Of a stretch of 58,345 nt of DNA, positions 17,241 to 57,045 are shown piece by piece; within the stretch, counting starts at the first letter, position 1; each line of letters opens with the position of its first letter. Both the position numbers and the translations under genes were made by a program. This DNA is from a virus (taxonomy: Duplodnaviria; Caudoviricetes), in IMG/VR virus record IMGVR_UViG_3300038424_000171, positions 1 to 58,345 of that record. One strand, written 5' to 3'. The notes below the pieces were generated by a model, which ran no database searches, was not told where the DNA came from, and saw nothing but the letters and a program-made list of their open reading frames with translations.

Positions 17241-17860
17241 CCGAAGATACCGCCGAACATCTGCTCAAAGTGTTTACGCTGCCATTTGACTTCTGCATCC
17301 TGCGCCGCATCCCGCGCCGCATCCCGCGCCGCTCCCCGCGCCGCTCCCCGCGCCGCAGCCCATGCCGCTCCCTGCGCCGCAGCCCATGCCGCTCCCTGCG
17401 CCGCAGCCCATGCCGCTCCCTGCGCCGCAGCTAATTCTTCTTGCGTTGCCTTCCCGTCGACGAATCGACGGGACACGTCGATTGCTTGATGTGGGCGTTT
17501 GTCGTCTGGATGTTCACGTTCGTAAATGGGCAGAACATGCTCCGCACAATCGCAGGCAAATAGCCGTAGTTCACGATTGTTATTCACGGCCTTGATCAGC
17601 TTCCGAGTGGCGCTGACAGCCTTACATTGATTGACGGTGTTATCGGTGAACAACGGCTGGCTGATTTCAACCAGGCACGCTATCGGACCGGATGCGTATT
17701 GCAGCGCATCCCAGAGCGACGGCGACGAATGGTATCCGTACTCGCAGAGCGCGATCTTGGAAGGGTCGGCAATCGTGCGAGTCTCGCCGATTTCCCAAGG
17801 CTTTTCGTTGCCGGAACCAGCGGTCATGTTGTCTCTAAGGAAATGGTACGCTCTGGTCAT
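17237..17860 (-). CDS. Imm5-like-domain protein with AAWAA repeats
   Basis: LRLFACDCAEHVLPIYEREHPDDKRPHQAI domain; 24-bp tandem repeats at about 17300-17430. Confidence 0.7.
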   Translation of the reverse strand: MTRAYHFLRDNMTAGSGNEKPWEIGETRTIADPSKIALCEYGYHSSPSLWDALQYASGPIACLVEISQPLFTDNTVNQCKAVSATRKLIKAVNNNRELRLFACDCAEHVLPIYEREHPDDKRPHQAIDVSRRFVDGKATQEELAAAQGAAWAAAQGAAWAAAQGAAWAAARGAARGAARDAARDAAQDAEVKWQRKHFEQMFGGIFG

Positions 17861-19664: not shown

Positions 19665-20090
19665 ATGCTGACTAATCGCGGATGGTTTAAGCCTGGACAC
19701 TCGCAGCCTAAATCCGAGGCGCACAGGAAGGCCATTGGAGAGGGGCAACGCCGCGCGTGGAGCACAAAAAGGCAACGGCTTCCGATTGGTTCAACTTGGA
19801 TCGACAACGATGGCTATGTTCGGGTCAAGACGAGCGAGCCTTGCGATTACTGGCGACCGGAGCACCTGATTGTAGCAGAAAAGAAACTCGGTCGCAGTCT
19901 CCTGCCTGGCGAGATTGTTCACCATATCAACGTAATCCCGAACGATAATCTGCCCGACAATTTGCACGTCTTCCCGAGCATATTGGAGCACAACGCTGCC
20001 CACCGGTCATTTCTTGATTTGGTCAAAGGACTGCTCGATGACCGGATTATTCGATTCAACACCAAAACAGGGAAATACGAGCGTTGCTGA
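19665..20090 (+). CDS. HNH homing endonuclease with a NUMOD3-like N-terminus
   Basis: SEAHRKAIGE; GYVRV...EHLIVAEKKLGR.L.PGEIVHHIN....DN..DNL. Confidence 0.88.
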   Translation: MLTNRGWFKPGHSQPKSEAHRKAIGEGQRRAWSTKRQRLPIGSTWIDNDGYVRVKTSEPCDYWRPEHLIVAEKKLGRSLLPGEIVHHINVIPNDNLPDNLHVFPSILEHNAAHRSFLDLVKGLLDDRIIRFNTKTGKYERC

Positions 20091-20794
20091 TGAAGCCTTA
20101 TTACGAAGACACTACAAGCGGCATCACGATTTACCACGGCGACTGCCGCGAGATTCTGTGGATGTTCAAGGCCGACCTCGTGCTGACCGACCCGCCCTAT
20201 GGTTCAGATACTTGCGTTGATAATGCTCGATTCTCAGGCGGAGCACTCTGGAATCGTCAGGTAATGCGATCTGCAGTGCAGGAACGCCGGAAAGTTGAGG
20301 GTGACTGTAAGCCGTTTGATCCAACGCCGCTTCTTGAATTTAAGCGACTCGCGCTCTTTGGAGCCAATTGGTATGCCTCGCGACTTCCTGATTCTGGTGG
20401 CTGGATCGTTTGGGATAAGCGAGGTAACGGACTCGAGGATATGAAGGGCTGGCCGATGGGCGAGTGTGAATTGATCTGGACGAATCTCGCTGATGCTGTG
20501 CACGTCTTTCGGAATCGCTGGATGGGCTTGGTGCGGGATTCCGAGCATGGCGAACATTACCATCCTACACAGAAGCCAGTCGCGCTGATGCGATGGCTTA
20601 TTGAGCGATTTACAAAGACAGGCGAGCGAATCCTTGATCCATATATGGGGAGCGGTTCGACCTTGGTAGCAGCCAAGAGCGTCGATCGTCGCGCCATCGG
20701 TATTGAGATCGAGGAGCGCTACTGCGAGATCGCGGCGAAGCGGTTGGCGCAGAGCGTGATGCAATTTGGGAGGCACTGTGACGAAACCGGTTAA
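20090..20794 (+). CDS. N6-adenine/N4-cytosine DNA methyltransferase (beta class)
   Basis: LTDPPY...HPTQKP...LDPYMGSGST...GIE. Confidence 0.92.
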   Translation: MKPYYEDTTSGITIYHGDCREILWMFKADLVLTDPPYGSDTCVDNARFSGGALWNRQVMRSAVQERRKVEGDCKPFDPTPLLEFKRLALFGANWYASRLPDSGGWIVWDKRGNGLEDMKGWPMGECELIWTNLADAVHVFRNRWMGLVRDSEHGEHYHPTQKPVALMRWLIERFTKTGERILDPYMGSGSTLVAAKSVDRRAIGIEIEERYCEIAAKRLAQSVMQFGRHCDETG

Positions 20795-23425: not shown

Positions 23426-23842
23426 TTTCGCATAAGAAGTATTCTGTCTCCTACGATCAACGCAGATGCTCAGGTATTTCCCGCGCCTCGTGATTATGTC
23501 CACTTCGAGCGCTTCGCCATTTATCCAAGGCTAACCCCTGCTCGTGCCTAACAATCGTAGCCAGCTTACAACGGTCAGCGGCCCGCGTGCGGCGTTGCTC
23601 GAGACCTGGCGTCGGCATCGCGGCCGCTGCGTCCAGTGTCAGGCGGCCGAGCATCCGCGATCGATGTGCCGATGCGCATGGAGTCTGTTCGCGTTGCAGC
23701 GCGATACCGAGGTTCAGGGCCGGGGGTACCCTAGGCGTCAGGGCTGCCAAGGGACTCCAACGAAGAACCCTAGTGTTTAACAGACTCCGTGGCTTAGGTC
23801 AGACCCTTGACAGTCTCTGGGGTCTCAGGGTATAGGGAGTGT

Positions 23843-24115
23843 ATGGGGTATCCGATACGGCGATGTAAGTGCGGGGCGGCACACGAGTGTCCGCTGATGG
23901 ACCCTGTGGAGAACGGGCGGCGGGCGCAGGCGGCGTTACGGCGGTTGCCGAGGATAACGGGAGGGAAGATAGACGTGCGCCGTGAGGTAGCCGAGCCGTC
24001 TCAGGCTGACACAAGCCAGATACAGGGTGCGAATCCCGACATAGCTCCAAACACCGAGACGGCATGGGAACCGCGGCCGCGGCGGTACATCGAGAGCAGG
24101 GAGCGAAAGCCATGA
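23843..24115 (+). CDS. Hypothetical protein
   Basis: GGGAG RBS; CKCGAAHEC. Confidence 0.5.
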   Translation: MGYPIRRCKCGAAHECPLMDPVENGRRAQAALRRLPRITGGKIDVRREVAEPSQADTSQIQGANPDIAPNTETAWEPRPRRYIESRERKP

Positions 24116-24230
24116 ACTTTGAGCGAGAATTGCAAATCGCGGCCTTTCTTCACATCATCAAGAATCTGATTCAGGGCGCTAATCGGGTAGTAACAAAAGG
24201 GAATTATTGATTTGAGTCCCTTGGGCGACA

Positions 24231-25274
24231 ATGTCTGCTTACTACAATGAAAATGAACCCTACGCGGCGCAGTGGCTCCGAAACCTCATCGCCGCGAAAC
24301 TCATCGCGGACGGAGATGTTGACGAACGAAGCATCGTCGATGTCAAGGCAGGCGACATTGCTGGATACACCCAATGTCATTTCTTCGCCGGAATCGGCGG
24401 ATGGTCCTATGCACTCCGGCTCGCCGGATGGCCCGACGAGCGCGCCGTCTGGACCGGCTCCTGTCCGTGCCCGCCCTTCAGCGCGGCGGGAAGGAAACGA
24501 TGCCCAAATTGCACTCATCGGGGTCTGGGATTCCTTGCAGGCGAGCATTCAGTCATCGAAGAGTTTGGCTGTCCATCGTGCGGATGGCGCGACGAGCGAA
24601 ATTTATGGCCTGAGTTCCGCAGGCTCATCGAAGGCGCACTCCCTGAGCGAATCTTTGGCGAGCAGGTTGCGAGCCCGCTTGGACGTGAATGGTTCGCCGG
24701 AATACGCGCTGATCTGGAAGCTCTGGGATATGCCTGCGCAGCCGTCGATTTGTGCGCTGCGAGCGTCGGCGCGCCCCATATCCGACAGCGGCTCTACTGG
24801 GTGGCCGACAGCGACAAGACAGGACGCGGGTGGAAGCCGCTCGCTGGGCTATGGCGGCCAGCGCTTTATGACGCTGACCGATGCGGCGCGAATGACGGGC
24901 TGGCCGAGTCCGAACACGCCGAGCGGCGGCCCGAACTCAAGGAAAACAGCCAGCCATCGGGGCGGCATGGATTTAGAGGGTGCGGCGAAGTTCGCGGGAT
25001 GGGCGACGCCTACTGGGCGGGATCACAAGGACGGCGAGAGCACCTTGGAGAACACGCCGATCAACTCTCTGCTTGGGCGGCTGGTCAGTCTCTCCGTTGC
25101 CTCGACGGAAAATCGCGGCGCATTGAACCCGGCGTTCAGCCGCTGGCTCATGGGGTTCCCGCCCGAGTGGGACGATTGCGCGGCTACGGCAACGCGATCG
25201 TCCCGCAAGTCGCGGCGGAATTTATCAAAGCCTGTAGGGAGTGCCGGCCATGCGTAAGGGACTCAAGTCAATAA
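24231..25274 (+). CDS. C5-cytosine DNA methyltransferase (alpha-type chain)
   Basis: FFAGIGG (I), GSCPCPPFS (IV), FGEQV (VI), PHIRQRLY (VIII), YGNAIVPQVA (X). Confidence 0.9.
   Translation: MSAYYNENEPYAAQWLRNLIAAKLIADGDVDERSIVDVKAGDIAGYTQCHFFAGIGGWSYALRLAGWPDERAVWTGSCPCPPFSAAGRKRCPNCTHRGLGFLAGEHSVIEEFGCPSCGWRDERNLWPEFRRLIEGALPERIFGEQVASPLGREWFAGIRADLEALGYACAAVDLCAASVGAPHIRQRLYWVADSDKTGRGWKPLAGLWRPALYDADRCGANDGLAESEHAERRPELKENSQPSGRHGFRGCGEVRGMGDAYWAGSQGRREHLGEHADQLSAWAAGQSLRCLDGKSRRIEPGVQPLAHGVPARVGRLRGYGNAIVPQVAAEFIKACRECRPCVRDSSQ
24247..25257 (+). CDS. Overlapping +1-frame ORF, probable methyltransferase beta chain (true start likely internal)
   Basis: Open for 336 codons; repeated GW(P/A)(T/S)(P/A) units; LNPAFSRWLMGFP resembles motif IX, which the main frame lacks. 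Confidence 0.65.
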   Translation: MKMNPTRRSGSETSSPRNSSRTEMLTNEASSMSRQATLLDTPNVISSPESADGPMHSGSPDGPTSAPSGPAPVRARPSARREGNDAQIALIGVWDSLQASIQSSKSLAVHRADGATSEIYGLSSAGSSKAHSLSESLASRLRARLDVNGSPEYALIWKLWDMPAQPSICALRASARPISDSGSTGWPTATRQDAGGSRSLGYGGQRFMTLTDAARMTGWPSPNTPSGGPNSRKTASHRGGMDLEGAAKFAGWATPTGRDHKDGESTLENTPINSLLGRLVSLSVASTENRGALNPAFSRWLMGFPPEWDDCAATATRSSRKSRRNLSKPVGSAGHA

Positions 25275-25317
25275 TTCCCCATGTTTAACTGACTGAGCGT
25301 TCGTGGTATTAGGTTTC

Positions 25318-25533
25318 ATGCCCATCTACACCGCGCGCATCGAGGACAACAAGCGCAAGCCGCATTTGAGGAAGGTGATGATTGTGGGGGTGCGGGACGA
25401 GCGGGAGGCGCGACGGCTGTTGTGGGAGCGGCGGTATCAGGTCGTGAGCTTCGGGATGGTGGAGGGGGTGGAGGTTTTGATTGGGGACTGGGTGGAGGAA
25501 GTGAAGCAGGAGCCGGTGGATGAGCCAGCCTGA
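25318..25533 (+). CDS. Hypothetical protein
   Basis: ORF overlapping the start of the next gene. Confidence 0.55.
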   Translation: MPIYTARIEDNKRKPHLRKVMIVGVRDEREARRLLWERRYQVVSFGMVEGVEVLIGDWVEEVKQEPVDEPA

Positions 25534-26113
25534 GACTGCGAAGCGCGCACGCCGACGGGCGTACGAGAAGCTGCCGTTCGAGCCGCTGAATCCAGAAGCA
25601 GCACGAGCGTTGGCGGACAAGGCAACTGAATTGCTTCACGAGCGTCCGCAACCTCCGACACCATGCGCCATCTGCGTTCACCCCGAAATGGCCGACATTA
25701 ACTTCCGACTCCTAGTCGGGGAGGACTGTCGGCAGATCGGGGAAGACTACGGGTTACATTCGGTCGGCTATGCGAGGACCATCCGTGTGCATCGGGACAC
25801 CCATTTGGTGCCGCTGATTCACGACGGCGCCCTGACCGGAATACTCGCTCTTCAGTTGCAACTTTATCCGCCTGATGGCAACGAGTCGCAGCGCCGCCAC
25901 TGGTACATCATGCAGGCGTATGGGATAAGGGCGCAGGCTATCAAGGAAAAGAATTGGTATCTCGCGCTCAAGGCGTTGCATGAAATGCGCGAGTCCGAAA
26001 CCGCATCGTTGACTCCCACCATCGCACTCTTCAAACAACTCAACGAAGAACCGCGCGGCGTCGAGCAGTTCCTGCCGCCCGCGAAACCGAAAGAGGTAAC
26101 TTACGATGAGTGA
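25520..26113 (+). CDS. Terminase small subunit candidate
   Basis: CAICVHP...INFRLLVGEDCRQIGEDYG HTH-type motif; position upstream of TerL. Confidence 0.55.
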   Translation: MSQPETAKRARRRAYEKLPFEPLNPEAARALADKATELLHERPQPPTPCAICVHPEMADINFRLLVGEDCRQIGEDYGLHSVGYARTIRVHRDTHLVPLIHDGALTGILALQLQLYPPDGNESQRRHWYIMQAYGIRAQAIKEKNWYLALKALHEMRESETASLTPTIALFKQLNEEPRGVEQFLPPAKPKEVTYDE

Positions 26114-26486
26114 CGAAGCCCCGAATCTCGACCTCGGCGACGGCGTGGTGCTCGAAACCCCCGCGTCCGACCCGAACAAGATTTTTAACTCGAACGACCT
26201 GACTCCAAAACACAAGGGTTGGCCCAAGGGCAAGTCGCGCAAGCCGCAACCGCAGATCGCGCCGCGTCAACTGCTCAACAAGCCGCAGGAAGGGGAGAGC
26301 GTCGAGCACTCGCTCATCCGGCGCTTGCTGAATGCCGCGAAGGCGCGCACTCAACTCGCGACGATCATCCCCGACCAGTGCACCGGCTGCGTCAATCAGC
26401 ACAAGATGGGGATTCGGCGCATGCCGGTCTGCGATTGCGTCTGCCATCAGGCGCGGGCATGGCTCGCGGATCCGAAGAACAAATGA
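26106..26486 (+). CDS. Hypothetical protein
   Basis: GAGGT RBS; GWPKGK; CxxC...CxCxCH. Confidence 0.65.
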   Translation: MSDEAPNLDLGDGVVLETPASDPNKIFNSNDLTPKHKGWPKGKSRKPQPQIAPRQLLNKPQEGESVEHSLIRRLLNAAKARTQLATIIPDQCTGCVNQHKMGIRRMPVCDCVCHQARAWLADPKNK

Positions 26487-26578
26487 ACAACTCTTGGCCT
26501 AAATATCCTGGACAACACATTCCAACGACACCGAATGCTTGCAACGCTCGGGTGATTTTTGATTCAGAAGATTTGAAG

Positions 26579-27050
26579 GGGAATTATTGATTTGAGTCCC
26601 TTGGAGGACAACTAACATGCCTGAAACGCCAAGGATGTTCTATTTCGGACCTTGGGATGAGGCTGGACACTACTTTTTTGATGAGCGCGGTAGTTACCAA
26701 AGCACAGACAGTATTCCGCGCTTTCCATTCGGTCACGAGGCCGGGAAGGTTTACGTTGATGGTGCGTTACAGCCCGGCTGCCCCGATTCTGGTGATCGAC
26801 TTTGCCGCCAAACGCGCCCGGAGATAGAAGGGGAAGCCGCGTTGCACCACATTCAGGGATGGACTGCGCTCTGTTTCTGGGATCGTTCCGTGGATGAACG
26901 AGGAGCCTGCAACAGCAATTACTTCGCGGAGGGAACCTTCACGTTCGATCAGATGGTTGAGATGGCAAAAACTCGTTTCGCGCATCGGTGGGACAAGATG
27001 AATTTCACGGTGCATCTTGCAGCTTAAAGGGACTCAAATCAATAATTCCC
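26579..27050 (+). mobile_element. TIR-bounded non-autonomous cassette 2 (472 bp) with an 8-bp TSD
   Basis: Perfect 24-bp TIRs at 26579-26602 and 27027-27050; ATTTGAAG at 26571-26578 and 27051-27058. Confidence 0.93.
26617..27027 (+). CDS. Passenger gene of cassette 2, unknown function
   Basis: GGAGG RBS just inside the TIR; the stop overlaps the right TIR; YFG.W..AGHY and GWTAL.FWDRSVD.RG.CNS motifs. Confidence 0.85.
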   Translation: MPETPRMFYFGPWDEAGHYFFDERGSYQSTDSIPRFPFGHEAGKVYVDGALQPGCPDSGDRLCRQTRPEIEGEAALHHIQGWTALCFWDRSVDERGACNSNYFAEGTFTFDQMVEMAKTRFAHRWDKMNFTVHLAA

Positions 27051-27149
27051 ATTTGAAGCATCATGCCTATATTTTCTGCGACTTGAAGTTGCACCATTGG
27101 GGCAGGCACAAATGGCGGGGACCATTCTGCACGGTGACGTGGCGCGGCA

Positions 27150-28736
27150 ATGTCTGAACCTAACCTCGCCGCCGCGCTGCAACCGCCCGACTTAAAATCG
27201 GTGCTGCGCGCCGACCTGCATAAGTACTTTCTCGCGCAGACCGGCGGACTCGACGCCTCTGGCGCGGTCACGGAAGAAGGCAAGATTTTCGACGTGGCGT
27301 TCATCCGCGACGTGATGGCTCCGGCAGTCACCGCGGCGGTCAACCACGAAATCGAAGCGCTCGCGCTGCTGTTGCCCGTGAGGCATACAAAGACCTGGTT
27401 TGTGAGCAAGCACACGATTCCGTGGGCGTTCGGTCGGTTTCCACAGCGCTCGAACATGCTGCTCTCCTACAGCGACGTATTCGCCAAGCGGTTCGGTCGC
27501 AACATCCTCGATCGCATGCAGACGATGGTGCACCGCTCCCTGTTTCCGGCCAATCAGATTTCCAAGTACGCGCATGGCGGCAATTATTTCGAGATAACCA
27601 ATGGCGCTTTTTTCGCTTCGGCGGGTTTCGACGGCCAAATTTCCGGGCTCGGTATAGGGGGAATTTTTGTCATCGACGACCCAATCAAAAATATCGAAGA
27701 GGCGCGTTCGCAGGCGCATGAGCAGACGTTGATGGACGTGTACCTTTCAACGGTCAAGACCCGACTCGAAAACGCATCGACCATCATGGCGACCACCCGC
27801 TGGTGCCGTGGCGACTTTTTCGAGCGCGTGATCGACGAAGAGGGATTGGCCGAGGACGGCGGCAAGTGGACCGTCATCACGCTGCCCGCGGAGGCGCGCG
27901 ACAACGATCCGGTTGGACGAGTACCGGGTGAATATTTGTGGCCGGAGCGTTGGTCGGAGAAGTGGTATCAGAACGCGAAAAAGAACAAGCGGTTCTGGCC
28001 TGCGCTCTATCAGCAAGACCCTCAGAGCGCGAGCGGCAAGAAGTTCGAGCGCTCTTGGCTGAATTTCTACCGAGAAGCGATTCGCCCCGGCAAGTTCAAA
28101 ACCTACATGATCTGCGACCCGGCCAAAGGCGGTAAGGACAAGTCGAGCAACCGGACTTCGATTCCGGTGTTCGCCGCCGCTCCGGGCAAAAAGCTGATGC
28201 TGGTCGATTGGGCGCTCGGCAGATTCGATCCCGACGAGCGCGCTGACCATTGGCTGCGCCTGTACCGCAAGTGGAAGCCGGTGCGCGCTGTGTACGAGGA
28301 ATACGGGCTGGTCAACGACAGTTGGTACTTGAATAAGCGCATGAAAGATCTCGGCTTCAACGCTCGCGCGATTCCAGTTGGGCGCAAGGGGCGCGCGTTC
28401 CGTCACTCGAAGGGCGACCGCATCGACTCGCTGATTCCCGACTTCCGCGAGGGGATGCTCTGGTTGCCCGATGAACAGTCACCCAACCGCGCCGCAATGC
28501 TCGGCAAGGAAGACGGAGAGCCGTTTGATCCCGTTCAATACCTGATCGAACAGGAGTACGTCGAATGGGCGGGCGAGGACTCGATACCCAACGACGACGC
28601 GCTGGATTCTTTTGCGTGGTTGCACTGCGACGAGTTGGGGATTACATATCCGAGAGACGACACACCGCGAGAGCCTGACTATATGAACATTTACAAGAAA
28701 ACGAGTGCGCGACCTCGAAGTTGGGAGCTTTGGTAA
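27150..28736 (+). CDS. terL: Terminase large subunit
   Basis: PVRHTKT (Walker A variant), IFVIDDPIKN (Walker B), TRW, ALYQQDP, ICDPA nuclease, NDDALD. Confidence 0.9.
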   Translation: MSEPNLAAALQPPDLKSVLRADLHKYFLAQTGGLDASGAVTEEGKIFDVAFIRDVMAPAVTAAVNHEIEALALLLPVRHTKTWFVSKHTIPWAFGRFPQRSNMLLSYSDVFAKRFGRNILDRMQTMVHRSLFPANQISKYAHGGNYFEITNGAFFASAGFDGQISGLGIGGIFVIDDPIKNIEEARSQAHEQTLMDVYLSTVKTRLENASTIMATTRWCRGDFFERVIDEEGLAEDGGKWTVITLPAEARDNDPVGRVPGEYLWPERWSEKWYQNAKKNKRFWPALYQQDPQSASGKKFERSWLNFYREAIRPGKFKTYMICDPAKGGKDKSSNRTSIPVFAAAPGKKLMLVDWALGRFDPDERADHWLRLYRKWKPVRAVYEEYGLVNDSWYLNKRMKDLGFNARAIPVGRKGRAFRHSKGDRIDSLIPDFREGMLWLPDEQSPNRAAMLGKEDGEPFDPVQYLIEQEYVEWAGEDSIPNDDALDSFAWLHCDELGITYPRDDTPREPDYMNIYKKTSARPRSWELW

Positions 28737-52023: not shown

Positions 52024-55000
52024 AGATTCGGCTGGCGATTATCTGTCTCCTTGCAACTCTAGTACTGCCGCATCTAGCGGTTGCGCAGACGGCTACACCG
52101 ACAGTGACCGCCACAGCGACGGCAACTGCCACGGCAACGCCTACTGCCACGCCGACGCCATGCGGCACGCTGCGTCAAATTGTCAGCGGTGCGTCCAACT
52201 CATGTACCGCGAGTTTCCCGTCGCTCTTGACTCCAACTCTAGGCGACCTGATGGTGGTTAATCTCAATACGATAGGAAGCGGCAACACGCCTGCTTCGTT
52301 GACCGTCACAGACACTCAAGGAAATAGCTGGATTCCTCATCCTCAGAACGGCAACAGCAACGTGTGTTCGTCCACGACGAAAGTGTGCTCCGCTCAATTC
52401 GCGACGATTGCGAACGCTAGTACATCCGATATTGTTACCGTGCACATCGGGTCGCCCGGCTCGGGTACTTGCCGGGCTATTAGTTCCGTTGCCGATTTCT
52501 TCGGTAATGCGAACTCGGCGGTTTATGACGGGTCGAATTGGGGCAGCAGCGGCTACAGCACCACGCAGGTTACGGGGCTGACCGCGACGACAATTCAGAA
52601 CGCCGAGATAGCGGTCGGTGAAATCGGGATCAGCCTCGGCACCGGCCCGACGAGCGGGCCGACCGAGTACGGCACGGCAAACGGCTCCGCTGCGAGTATT
52701 GCGAATTATGTGGGGCCAGGCATCGGACAGTTTATCGGATGGGTGAATCAAAATCTCGCCGGGACCGAAGGACTTGACTGGACGACTGGCGCGAATGTTT
52801 ACAATACCGGGCTGATCGGCACCTTCTTTTGCTCCGGTGCGGCAACCCCGACGCCGACTGCTACCGCCACATCAACCGCCACCGCAACCGCCACGACCAC
52901 ATCAACCGCGACCAAAACCGCCACCGCCACGGCGACGCCTACGATCAGCGCAACGCCTACGATCAGCGCAACGCCGACTGCGAGCGCATCATCTACCGCG
53001 ACGACTACAGCGACTCCGACTGCGACTCCGACTGCACAACCATCAGGTCCGCCTGTGGCCTGTCTGACTGGAAATCTCCAGCACCTCTACGGCATCGGTG
53101 CAGTCAAGGCGCGCGTGAATTACAAGACGCCGGCGTTCCCGCAGGTGCCTCCATTCGGCGGGTCGGTTATCCCCGGCGTTGACCTCTGCTCATCGATCAC
53201 TGACGCCAGCGGCAACCTGCCTACGAGTGGTCAATGCACCTGCTTCATCCAGGGGGAATGCCTGCTCGTACAAGTCGGCACGGGGCAGCCTGTGCAAATC
53301 CAGATTCCGATGATGACTGGCGCCGATTTGAGCACACTGATTCTGGCGAATACGGATCCCGATTCCATAGTGACCGACATCGATCTCGCCGGCCCCGACT
53401 TCTCGGGGTACACCGTGGCAAATCCGTCCGATGGCGCGATCGGAACGGCGACGATTACCAGTCCGTCCGCCTACTCAGTACAGGCCAATGGCAGTTTGAA
53501 CCTCAACATCAGCGTGAACGGAAACCTTCAAGTTGTCACGTTGAATGGCAGCTCGACGTTGACGCTTACGAATTTCGCCAGCGGCGGCAAGTTTGTCATC
53601 GACACCTTGGAGAACTCGACAGGCGGATACACGCCGACATTCGCGGTTCCTGTTGGCTACTCGCTGGTCTGGGCGGGCGGCGGCATTCAACCGCCGTCTT
53701 CGCTGACTGCGGATACTTACTCGGAGTGGCAGTTCGCAGTGTCCAACACTACGGTTGTCGGCGTGTTGCTCCAGTCTCCCAACGGCGGCAACAGCTTCAG
53801 TTCCTTGAGCGTCGCATCCGGCATTACCGACACGGGCCAAGTGGACGTATTGCCGATCATCGCAGAGAGTCCGACCGTGACGGTCCAAGGTACGGAAGGC
53901 TCGACTACCTACACTTACGCGCTGATGTGTAATGATAGCACTACCGGGCAGACGACGGCATCTCCATTCGTCCCTGTGACTGATGGGAACGCCGTTCTGA
54001 GCGGATCGAATTATAATCAGATTTGCGCGGCAAACGAGGCGGGATGCGTGTCGTGGACGGTGCTCAAGACCAACACCTCAACGACTTTGGGAACCATCGC
54101 GGCTCCGAGCGGGTGCCTGAACGACACGGGGCAGGCGACGACAGCCTGTACGCAGACGATCAACGGCGCGAGTTTTCCTTGCTCGACGGCCAATACGACT
54201 GGAGCGATTGATGCGAGTCTGTGGGTTGGAAATTGGGCGCTGCTCACGGCAACGGGGCAGATTCCCTACGCCGCCAGCCCATTCGTCGATGCGGCTCTCA
54301 ACGGTTTCACAGGGCAACTCTCCGCCCCGACTGCTCCGGTCATCACGCAAGGCGGAACGACCGGCTCGACCACCTACACCTACTATCTCGTCTGTCACGA
54401 CTCGCACGGTGGCTCGACGGTGCCATCAGGGGCCGGATCGACGGGCACCGGCAACGCGACGCTTTCAGGAAGCAACTATAATATCGTGACCTTTCCCGGC
54501 GAACTGGGATGCGTCACTTGGGACGTGCTCTCGCCGGACACGGCGCATGTGGTGTCACTGACGCCACAGCCGGGGCCGACATTCAACGATACGAGTAATT
54601 GTCAGAACACATCACCCGTTACTTGCAGTCCGTACACGACACCGGCGACGAATACGACCTCGGCTGACGCTTATCTCTACAGCGCGCCGAACGGTCAAGC
54701 GACGCCTGTGGGCGCGAGCGCTCCAGCGTGGCAACCGATTCTCGCGTCAGACGTGCCGGGCTTCGACAATGTAACCGTCAACGGGATTCCCGCCAAGGGC
54801 TACCTTCCCATCGCCACGGGACCAAACTCCGGCACCTGGCAATCGGGAACGAGCATCACGCAACTAATCACGCATGGGCAGCAGCTCGTCACCGTAAGCC
54901 AGGCCTTCACCGTGCCTGCAAACGTCTTTTCCATCACGGCTGAGTGTTGGGGTGGAGGAGGCGGAGGAGGAGGATACGGCGCTGGCCCTGTTTCCGGCAC

Positions 55001-56029: not shown

Positions 56030-57045
56030 ACTGGAGGCTGACATTCACAGGAGTTTTGATGTGCTTGTTGTATGCAACGTCGGGAGAGGCGCAAATCGCA
56101 GTCGTGGGTGTGCCGTCGGCGGCTTCGACTGTTACCAACGGGTTCACCGGCGGGCATGGATGTACGGCAGTGGAGTGCCCCGACATTCTAAGTCTGACGC
56201 TGAATAAGCCTACGGGCACGACGAGCGGAGATGTCGAATTGATCGGCCTGTATTTCGGTGACAGCTCCACATCGCCGTACCTGACACCTCCGGCTGGATG
56301 GACTCCCCTGGTATCCGAGATTGGCAGCAGCGCTTTTCTGGCGCTCTATTGCCTGAATGCAGGGGCCAGCGAACCCGCAAGCTATACCTTCCAGTTCAAC
56401 GGGAGTTATTGGGGCTACCTTTTTGCTTCGGGCGGTATCATTACTTATTCGGGTACGCAACCATGCGCGAGTCTTCTGGACACGAATACCGCCAAGGCGG
56501 GCGACGGCACAGTGCCGGTTGCTGGCGGTGTCACGACCACTATTCCGAACGACTGGATTGCGACGTTGTGGGGGTTCTCGTCCACCGATGCCGGCGGTAA
56601 CGAGGTATCGTCCACTCTCACGATCCCAAGCCCCTTGAATTTGGAATACGGGGTTTCATCGGTGGCGGGAATTCCGCCGGCAGGGGCGCTCGGAATTACC
56701 TGGGGAGATGAGGGGCCGGTCTCGCCTGGGCCGACGGGCAACTTTACGGGCAGCCTTACGAACAGCATCTTTTGGGATGTTTATACGCTTGCGCTCGCAC
56801 CTGCGAGTCCCACGGCGACTGCGACGCCGACTGCCACTGCAACGTCAACAGCCACTGCAACGTCAACAGCCACGGCAACCTCGACAGCAACGGCTACGGC
56901 GACTGCTACCGCTACCGGCGTTGCGACGGCGACTGCTACCGCTACCGCTACCGGCGTTGCGACGGCTACCCCAACTGCCACAGTTAGCGCGACACCAACA
57001 GCGTCACCAACGCCTGCGGGTAGGGTAACGGTGAGGATTCTGTGA
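56026..57045 (+). CDS. Signal-peptide protein with a beta domain and C-terminal TAT tract
   Basis: GTGA overlap; MNWRLTFTGVLMCLLYATSGEA-Q; KPTGTTSGDV...TPPAGWT...ASEPASYTF. Confidence 0.75.
   Translation: MNWRLTFTGVLMCLLYATSGEAQIAVVGVPSAASTVTNGFTGGHGCTAVECPDILSLTLNKPTGTTSGDVELIGLYFGDSSTSPYLTPPAGWTPLVSEIGSSAFLALYCLNAGASEPASYTFQFNGSYWGYLFASGGIITYSGTQPCASLLDTNTAKAGDGTVPVAGGVTTTIPNDWIATLWGFSSTDAGGNEVSSTLTIPSPLNLEYGVSSVAGIPPAGALGITWGDEGPVSPGPTGNFTGSLTNSIFWDVYTLALAPASPTATATPTATATSTATATSTATATSTATATATATATGVATATATATATGVATATPTATVSATPTASPTPAGRVTVRIL

Follow-up and report, generated by a model that had tools for sequence, protein, structure and literature searches.

The window analysed here is the complete 58,345-bp viral record IMGVR_UViG_3300038424_000171, a peat phage with direct terminal repeats of 127 nt, and it carries two short gene cassettes that are each bounded by a pair of inverted 24-bp repeats. 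A search of the window that tolerated up to three mismatches found four matches to the 24-mer GGGAATTATTGAYTTGAGTCCCTT, where none was expected and none appeared in any of 100 shuffles, and the sequence lies nowhere else in the window than at the four positions given in Table 1. Three of the copies are identical, while the one at 25256 differs at a single base (a C variant, T13C). As proposed in a preliminary description made from this sequence alone, the copies are arranged as two pairs that face inward and span 1081 bp and 472 bp, each enclosing one open reading frame (ORF), and both units are filled to 87–97% by an intact ORF. Their left ends have 33 nt in common, namely the repeat followed by GGnnGACAA.

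In both cassettes the gene is fitted closely between its repeats. The gene of cassette 1 begins at an ATG 8 nt past the inner edge of the left repeat, and its TAA (25272-25274) is furnished by the right repeat; that of cassette 2 begins 14 nt past the inner edge, behind GGAGGA, and its TAA (27025-27027) ends on the first base of the right repeat. The start distances in the preliminary description are thus correct, but the two ATGs (24231 and 26617) lie outside the left repeat, past its inner edge; likewise, its statement that both stops overlap the right repeat holds fully for the longer gene, but for the shorter one only to the extent of that single shared base. The two cargos are unrelated, as it had said, one being a C5 methylase and the other a conserved 136-amino-acid protein without any family match. 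It had also pointed out that the ORFs upstream of the two cassettes, which run from in-frame ATGs at 24112 and 26483, both terminate K-G-N-Y-stop. They do, yet this is a consequence of the repeat sequence itself, which has stops in two of the three outside frames (read from outside, GGG AAT TAT TGA stops one frame and the TGA at bases 15-17 a second); that both upstream ORFs should use a common frame is a roughly 1-in-3 event. We found no IS1595-type transposase in the window, and to that extent the earlier statement that the genome lacks a recognisable transposase stands; other transposase types were not searched for.

Table 1. Features of the two cassettes in the window (positions are those of the window) and cargo of sister cassettes at other loci (L numbers).
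Feature	Location	Strand	Description or evidence
Cassette 1	24199..25279	+	1081 bp: repeat, C5 DNA methylase gene, repeat; flanks TAACAAAA / CATGTTTA
Cassette 1, left terminal inverted repeat	24199..24222	+	0 mismatches
Cassette 1, right terminal inverted repeat	25256..25279	-	one difference, T13C
Cargo 1, C5 cytosine DNA methyltransferase, 347 amino acids	24231..25274	+	Pfam and PHROG matches, homologue alignment
5′ piece of short ORF cut by cassette 2	26483..26590	+	terminates K-G-N-Y-stop within the repeat
Target-site duplication ATTTGAAG, left copy	26571..26578	.	perfect 8-bp direct repeat
Cassette 2	26579..27050	+	472 bp: repeat, GGAGGA ribosome-binding site, gene of 136 amino acids, repeat
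Cassette 2, left terminal inverted repeat	26579..26602	+	24-mer search
Cargo 2, protein of 136 amino acids	26617..27027	+	conserved family, confident predicted fold
Cassette 2, right terminal inverted repeat	27027..27050	-	24-mer search
Target-site duplication ATTTGAAG, right copy	27051..27058	.	perfect 8-bp direct repeat
N6/N4 methylase cargo	L013		PF01555 6.1e-20
N6/N4 methylase cargo	L061		PF01555 1.6e-20
Mom-like cargo	523-bp cassette		PF25680 7.9e-16; phrog_1384 3.4e-25
Second C5 methylase cargo	726-bp cassette		PF00145 4.2e-06; phrog_363 2.1e-13
Cargo ORFs of 77, 67 and 150 amino acids	sister cassettes		no family match
Pair of small cargo ORFs	sister cassette		one PHROG of unknown function
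Unit without clear ORF	sister cassette		

The same ends bound transposase genes elsewhere. Our scans for these ends covered part of the viral, metagenome and genome collections, so that all counts of loci are lower bounds: exact ends were found on at least one other viral contig, in at least four stretches on three species-genome contigs and in at least 19 metagenome stretches, with two copies facing one another in many of the matched loci, while a looser end pattern matched at least 28 stretches of viral contigs and brought in further autonomous (L064, L068, L080) and transposase-less units. An ORF of 305–313 amino acids lies between such ends in L005, L015/L020, L025/L026, L029, L064, L068 and L080, and in L005, L015/L020, L025/L026 and L029 one to three small unrelated ORFs stand upstream of it (306–313 amino acids in these loci). 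Family matching, run on three of these ORFs, assigned that of L005 to PF12762 (DDE_Tnp_IS1595, 2.1e-43) and PF12760 (Zn_ribbon_IS1595, 3.6e-09), that of L015 to the NCBIfam model NF033547 (transpos_IS1595, 3.9e-61, 206.6 bits where the cut-off is 75) and that of L064 to PF12762 (3.8e-47). Six aligned transposase ORFs (L068 was left out) are 68–96% identical to one another and contain the pattern DE..TD..N.IE....K, which is given for IS1595 elements in the part of PMC12561309 drawn on here. Both ends of L025 are identical to the repeat of cassette 2 at 24 of 24 positions, and its ORF of 309 amino acids is 68–80% identical to the family-matched transposases of L005, L015 and L064.

These matches identify the 24-mer as the end of IS1595-family elements. 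The preliminary description had suggested searching other contigs for the 24-mer and for an autonomous insertion sequence (IS) with the same ends, and this search yielded IS1595 transposases between identical ends (those of L025); its statement that IS1595 elements can carry passengers and make 8-bp duplications agrees with the small ORFs upstream of the transposases and with the flanks of 17 of the 22 copies described below. We also observe that a 1609-bp element is 100% identical between L025 (412-2020) and L026 (2195-3803), where one flank is common to the two contigs and the other is different, either because the copies have recombined or because the assembly is chimeric at the repeat.

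To characterize insertion we tabulated 22 element copies, with the next 8-mers outward as the control. Perfect 8-bp direct repeats lie just outside the ends in 17 of the 22, every one a different sequence, against 0/22 in the control. These duplications have a GC content of 19%, in loci of 34–60% GC, and several are palindromic (for example TTTCGAAA, AAAATTTT and TAAATTTA). Insertion duplicates 8 bp of an AT-rich, often palindromic target. In the window, cassette 2 is flanked by such a duplication (ATTTGAAG) and cassette 1 is not (TAACAAAA / CATGTTTA). AT-rich direct repeats of 8 bp are also known for another IS1595/IS1016 element, as the cited part of PMC12561309 has it. A single composite element running between the outer repeats of the two cassettes (24199-27050) was considered and rejected, its flanks being TAACAAAA and ATTTGAAG, with no duplication.

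Sister cassettes without a transposase have moved recently, as their identity at different sites shows. The copies of a 523-bp cassette with Mom-like cargo in L013 (duplication AAAGTAAG) and L035 (duplication CAAAATAG) are 100% identical, and so are those of a 726-bp cassette with a second C5 methylase in L014 (duplication CAAGAAAG) and L031 (duplication CATAAAAT); in both pairs the cassette is the sole sequence common to the two loci. A further junction of the 523-bp cassette, the third, opens L018. The suggestion that the same ends might surround other, unrelated cargo is likewise supported by several further transposase-less loci. The table of 22 copies holds 10 distinct transposase-less cassettes, five of which carry DNA-modification cargo (two C5 methylases, two N6/N4 methylases and one Mom), and an eleventh cassette, L096, lies outside that table. 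The remaining cargo, and the passengers of the transposase-bearing elements, had no match in Pfam, PHROGs or NCBIfam save for one PHROG of unknown function. In L019 (6481-10901, equal to L013 and L014 together) cassettes with an N6 methylase, a Mom and a C5 methylase gene lie within 4.5 kb on the strand of the neighbouring genes, forming a small 'array' of DNA-modification cassettes.

The single-ORF cassettes (10 copies, 8 of them distinct) are built to a common plan, in which the start codon lies anywhere from 11 nt inside one repeat to 22 nt past its inner edge and the stop codon 0–19 nt into the other repeat, a layout that L096 also has; in three cassettes the repeat's own TAA is the stop codon. 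Autonomous elements have a promoter-like site, TTGACA-17-TAnATT, just inside the left repeat, where 52–71 bases are conserved, and the single-ORF cassettes retain only the 24-bp repeats, with no inward promoter-like site. Weak outward promoter-like matches (9/12) overlap the left repeats. In crude maps of the longest ORFs, the closest ORF upstream of the cargo shares its strand at 8 of 11 insertions, and read-through expression of the cargo seems plausible for most cassettes, not all. We favour an origin of these tight units by deletion down to the repeats and the ORF: L016 and L074 have truncated transposase genes, while L065 has lost the transposase and kept the promoter, and looks like an earlier stage of such a deletion.

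Within the autonomous elements, the conserved sequence TTGACA-17-TA(C/T)ATT has its start in the final bases of the left repeat (L015 355-405, and the left ends of L016, L025/L026, L029 and L065), and its –35 hexamer is in the loop of an inverted repeat, AGTCCC...GGGACT. With such an arrangement, transposase binding and transcription could interact.

We read the two units of the window as phage-resident, ultra-compact mobile insertion cassettes (MICs) that come from one lineage of IS1595-family insertion sequences, and we put the probability that they are IS1595-derived MICs moved in trans at roughly 85%. They have the repeats of IS1595 elements, no transposase inside, and passengers unrelated to transposition. 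Each cassette would keep only the 24-bp repeats that the transposase recognizes, together with one promoterless gene packed edge to edge, the tight packing being the outcome of deletion down to repeats and ORF and the repeat providing, in some cassettes, the stop codon. A transposase made in the same cell would bind both repeats and move the cassette to AT-rich spaces that separate phage genes, where the cargo would usually be transcribed by read-through from upstream phage genes. Such cassettes might persist since their cargo helps the phage, as DNA methylases and Mom-type modification would shield phage DNA from host restriction.

The transposase might be supplied by a transposase-bearing element on a co-infecting phage or prophage, or by one on the host chromosome, as the preliminary description had proposed. 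One autonomous element (L005) is carried by a complete viral genome (G004), and another (L015) lies on G002:C1, a contig of a Terriglobales metagenome-assembled genome (MAG) that has glycosyltransferases and another transposase and looks chromosomal; the source could therefore be phage, prophage or host, and we infer one of these three. The autonomous element L017 and the cassette-bearing L018, L031 and L035 have a common contig-name prefix, and therefore donor and cassettes can co-occur. Phage structural genes accompany several of the cassettes and elements: tail sheath and tape measure genes lie on the 75-kb contig with three cassettes (L019), and the same gene pair is listed for G001:C444; G003:C163 has a head–tail adaptor and tail proteins; and the cassette of L035 adjoins a portal-like gene.

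Several observations weigh against this interpretation. The ends are rare in the class of G002, a candidate for the host, where 3 genomes of the 401 sampled have them, and were found on one contig each in three MAGs, which lose repeats, so that low host counts do not show absence. Cassettes 1 and 2 are seen only at their two sites in the window, the sole other contig with part of them (L030) being the same phage at 99.8% identity. The stretch is present in 24 public runs, but the empty-site alleles that the preliminary description had suggested looking for did not turn up: over 23800-27500 the contigs of four other runs (X5, X6, X8 and X11) span every one of the four junctions exactly as the window does, and none joins across either cassette, a comparison made on contigs, which drop rare variants. 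Both insertions thus look fixed where sampled. Close relatives of the terminase, or of the gene between two sister cassettes, were not found in viral contigs, and therefore there is no related phage to compare. Five of the 22 tabulated copies have no duplication (cassette 1, L005, L016, L026 and L029). The upstream ORF, again on crude longest-ORF maps, runs against the cargo at L058 and L061, and its strand is ambiguous at cassette 1. Finally, cargo 2 is without known function, so that the DNA-modification theme covers only five of the 10 distinct cassettes.

The absence of a second site and of an empty-site allele is also what would be expected if the two window cassettes were dead relics, IS1595-derived but now fixed and immobile as ordinary phage genes whose mover is gone, and the lack of an IS1595 transposase in the genome, together with the missing duplication and the one repeat mismatch of cassette 1, fits this as well. 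Cassette 2 argues against such decay, however: its repeats are identical to one another at all 24 positions and to the two ends of L025, an autonomous element that is intact, and they are flanked by a perfect 8-bp duplication, as in a recent insertion. The transposase-less sister cassettes that are 100% identical at different sites argue in the same direction, and we regard relics as improbable, though the most serious of the alternatives.

A considerably less probable alternative is that the cassettes are portable modules for which recombination, homologous or illegitimate, is the main means of passing from phage to phage, with the repeats acting as shared homology and not as transposase substrates. 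The element common to L025 and L026, with its one shared and one different flank, would suit this explanation, and copies without duplications, such as cassette 1 and the four others, are the pattern expected from recombining copies. The difference between L025 and L026 may, however, be an assembly chimera at the repeat, and the perfect, mutually different AT-rich duplications of 17 of the 22 copies are the signature of DDE transposition and not of recombination. That the 24-mers are phage regulatory or structural repeats (operators, terminators or recombination sites) that bracket two genes by chance can be practically dismissed, despite a small internal palindrome in the repeat (GGGA...TCCC) and the weak outward promoter-like matches noted above, since unrelated contigs have IS1595 transposase genes between copies of this sequence, target duplications flank the repeat pairs and the genome has only four occurrences.

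Interpreted as MICs moved in trans, the window units invite comparison with several known systems. MIC231 of Bacillus cereus, which has the ends of IS231, is one such MIC. The concept comprises IS-type inverted repeats around one or more passenger genes, with no transposase, as set out in the portion of PMC3129680 on which we draw. The window units resemble the known MICs (MIC231 and, in the portions of the sources used, the qnrS2 and qnrD cassettes) in having IS ends and a passenger but no transposase; they differ in their IS1595-type ends, in being carried by phages instead of chromosomes or plasmids, in that the cargo of their family includes DNA-modification genes where known MICs have resistance or peptidase genes, and in consisting of one promoterless ORF that abuts both repeats. 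Transporter IS (tIS) were reportedly defined on the IS1595 family by Siguier et al. in 2009, in the founding paper of that family. Ends of the form 'GGnnATTAT', which the preliminary description had brought up, presumably belong to the ISNwi1 group, a candidate group for our elements, whose ends (GGGAATTAT) fit that consensus. The term tIS stands for ISs that carry passenger genes, as used in the part of PMC7986276 cited here. With the IS1595-family tIS our elements share the transposase family, the AT-rich 8-bp duplications and ends starting GGGAATTAT, and L005, L015, L025, L029, L064, L068 and L080 are themselves tIS, with passengers that vary and lie upstream of the transposase, whereas the window units have neither transposase nor internal promoter.

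Gene cassettes of integrons are promoterless, mostly single-ORF units with little non-coding DNA that are expressed from outside, each with one attC site at its 3′ end and mobilized by a tyrosine recombinase, the integrase IntI. The likeness to them is one of architecture only, and the two inverted 24-bp repeats and the duplication of cassette 2 rule out that the window units are integron cassettes (IntI was not searched for). MITEs, miniature transposable elements with inverted repeats, are alike in being non-autonomous and in combining inverted repeats of IS origin with a target duplication, but MITEs are non-coding and each window unit carries an intact ORF, which rules them out as well. 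The mycobacteriophage mobile elements (MPMEs) have a single small ORF, and to our knowledge no cognate transposase has been reported for them. The portion of PMC3029335 used here describes MPME1 and MPME2 as phage-resident, about 440 bp long and bounded by inverted repeats, with identical copies at different sites in closely related mycobacteriophages, and reports that insertion adds 6 bp at the left repeat, with no target duplication described in that portion. Cassette 2 is similar to them in size and in its single small ORF but differs in its 24-bp IS1595 ends, perfect 8-bp duplication and identifiable autonomous relatives, and it is these repeats and this duplication that rule out MPMEs as an identity for the window units. 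A literature search that did not extend to supplementary files found no description of phage-resident single-ORF IS1595 cassettes; MICs and tIS are already known, and what is new here is the phage setting, the DNA-modification cargo and the edge-to-edge single-ORF design.

A broader possibility, to which we give less than even odds, is that this IS1595 lineage has adapted to phage genomes and serves to shuttle counter-defence genes in cassettes that are dealt among unrelated phages during co-infection. By analogy with the resistance-gene MICs of plasmids and with integron cassettes, we would tentatively extend this to any single gene that is sufficient by itself and of benefit to a phage, which might be trimmed to repeat, ORF and repeat, DNA methylases and Mom being the first examples. 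If so, unannotated cargo would represent new anti-restriction or DNA-modification functions, including the 136-amino-acid family of cassette 2, the ORFs of 77, 67 and 150 amino acids and the tIS passengers, and the repeat would become a search handle for mining candidate counter-defence genes from metagenomes. Insertion sequences are reported to be ill tolerated by phages, which are said to make poor vehicles for them (PMC3429520). In the present case one IS family occurs repeatedly in phage genomes, stripped to the smallest movable unit and with cargo that is plausibly beneficial. This suggests a route by which DDE transposition during co-infection could spread orphan methylases and accessory genes, adding to recombination in phage mosaicism, by means of a compact two-part system of 24-bp ends and a transposase of about 308 amino acids.

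The methylase gene of cassette 1 is intact. It matches PF00145 (2.4e-08) and phrog_363 (7.3e-69), and its homologues span 96–98% of its length, the protein P0001 having 55% identity (E 1e-122) and P0040 64% in an N-terminal and 73% in a C-terminal block. A second frame, shifted by +1 from that of the methylase, stays open through the whole gene for 336 codons (24247-25257, +) and matches two methyltransferase PHROGs (phrog_1008, 2e-19; phrog_31772, 7e-15), with WPTP-like and LMGFP-like stretches. We considered whether the gene might be broken by two frameshifts, and ruled this out, as the first frame aligns end to end with homologues and the second does not; codon-position GC did not discriminate between the two frames. 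The second open frame may reflect either wrong-frame calls in those PHROGs or a frameshifted history of the gene family. The window also has a resident N6/N4-type DNA methylase (20090-20794, +; DPPY motif) with no repeats around it, which is 48.7% identical to the cargo of a 698-bp cassette in L013; the phage thus carries two methylases or more, of which one is resident and another sits in a cassette.

The protein of cassette 2 belongs to a conserved family of its own. It has no match in Pfam, PHROGs or NCBIfam, and among its 168 homologues at E ≤ 0.001 none has a Pfam domain; an alignment of 34 sequences has 27 invariant columns, including H18, E23, D48, D89, D93 and R95. The AlphaFold model is confident (predicted local distance difference test score 91.6), and a fold search with it gave no PDB match at E ≤ 0.001 (best E 0.08) and, as best viral match, an uncharacterized protein (E 3e-3). 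A profile of the family had no matches among PDB sequences, a protein atlas look-up gave nothing usable, and the neighbouring genes of homologues offered no functional clue. None of 11 viral loci of cargo 2 homologues has the repeats, and homologues of both kinds of cargo are ordinary resident phage genes elsewhere.

Insertion of cassette 2 may have split a small putative gene just upstream of a large ORF at 27150 that is probably the terminase. The frame of the short ORF from 26483 resumes at 27051-27157, overlapping the start of the large ORF, and deleting the cassette together with one copy of the duplication joins 26483-26578 and 27051-27157 into an ORF of 64 codons.

Decayed and non-coding relatives of the elements also occur. 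L074 (9829-11049) is a decayed element, with its truncated transposase and the duplication GAAAATAG, which encodes a protein of 406 amino acids with weak P-loop NTPase matches under the Pfam cut-offs and, in its C-terminal part, an HHYL stretch reminiscent of NHYL in the Mom cargo. MITE-sized non-coding relatives with similar ends lie in L033 (2-170; 169 bp), L024 (2801-2922), L032 (1246-1367) and L097 (1291-1522; 232 bp), the last on a contig of more than 394 kb and with the duplication TTTTGGAG. Elsewhere in the window, GC-rich periodic repeats of 6, 12 and 18 nt (ACG/GCG/ACC-type triplets) recur in three or more places far apart, among them 223-424, 52831-53056 and 56789-57035, along with a separate run of 12-nt units at 17287-17442, and the periodic triplet runs probably encode low-complexity linkers of Thr/Ala/Pro type in several proteins.

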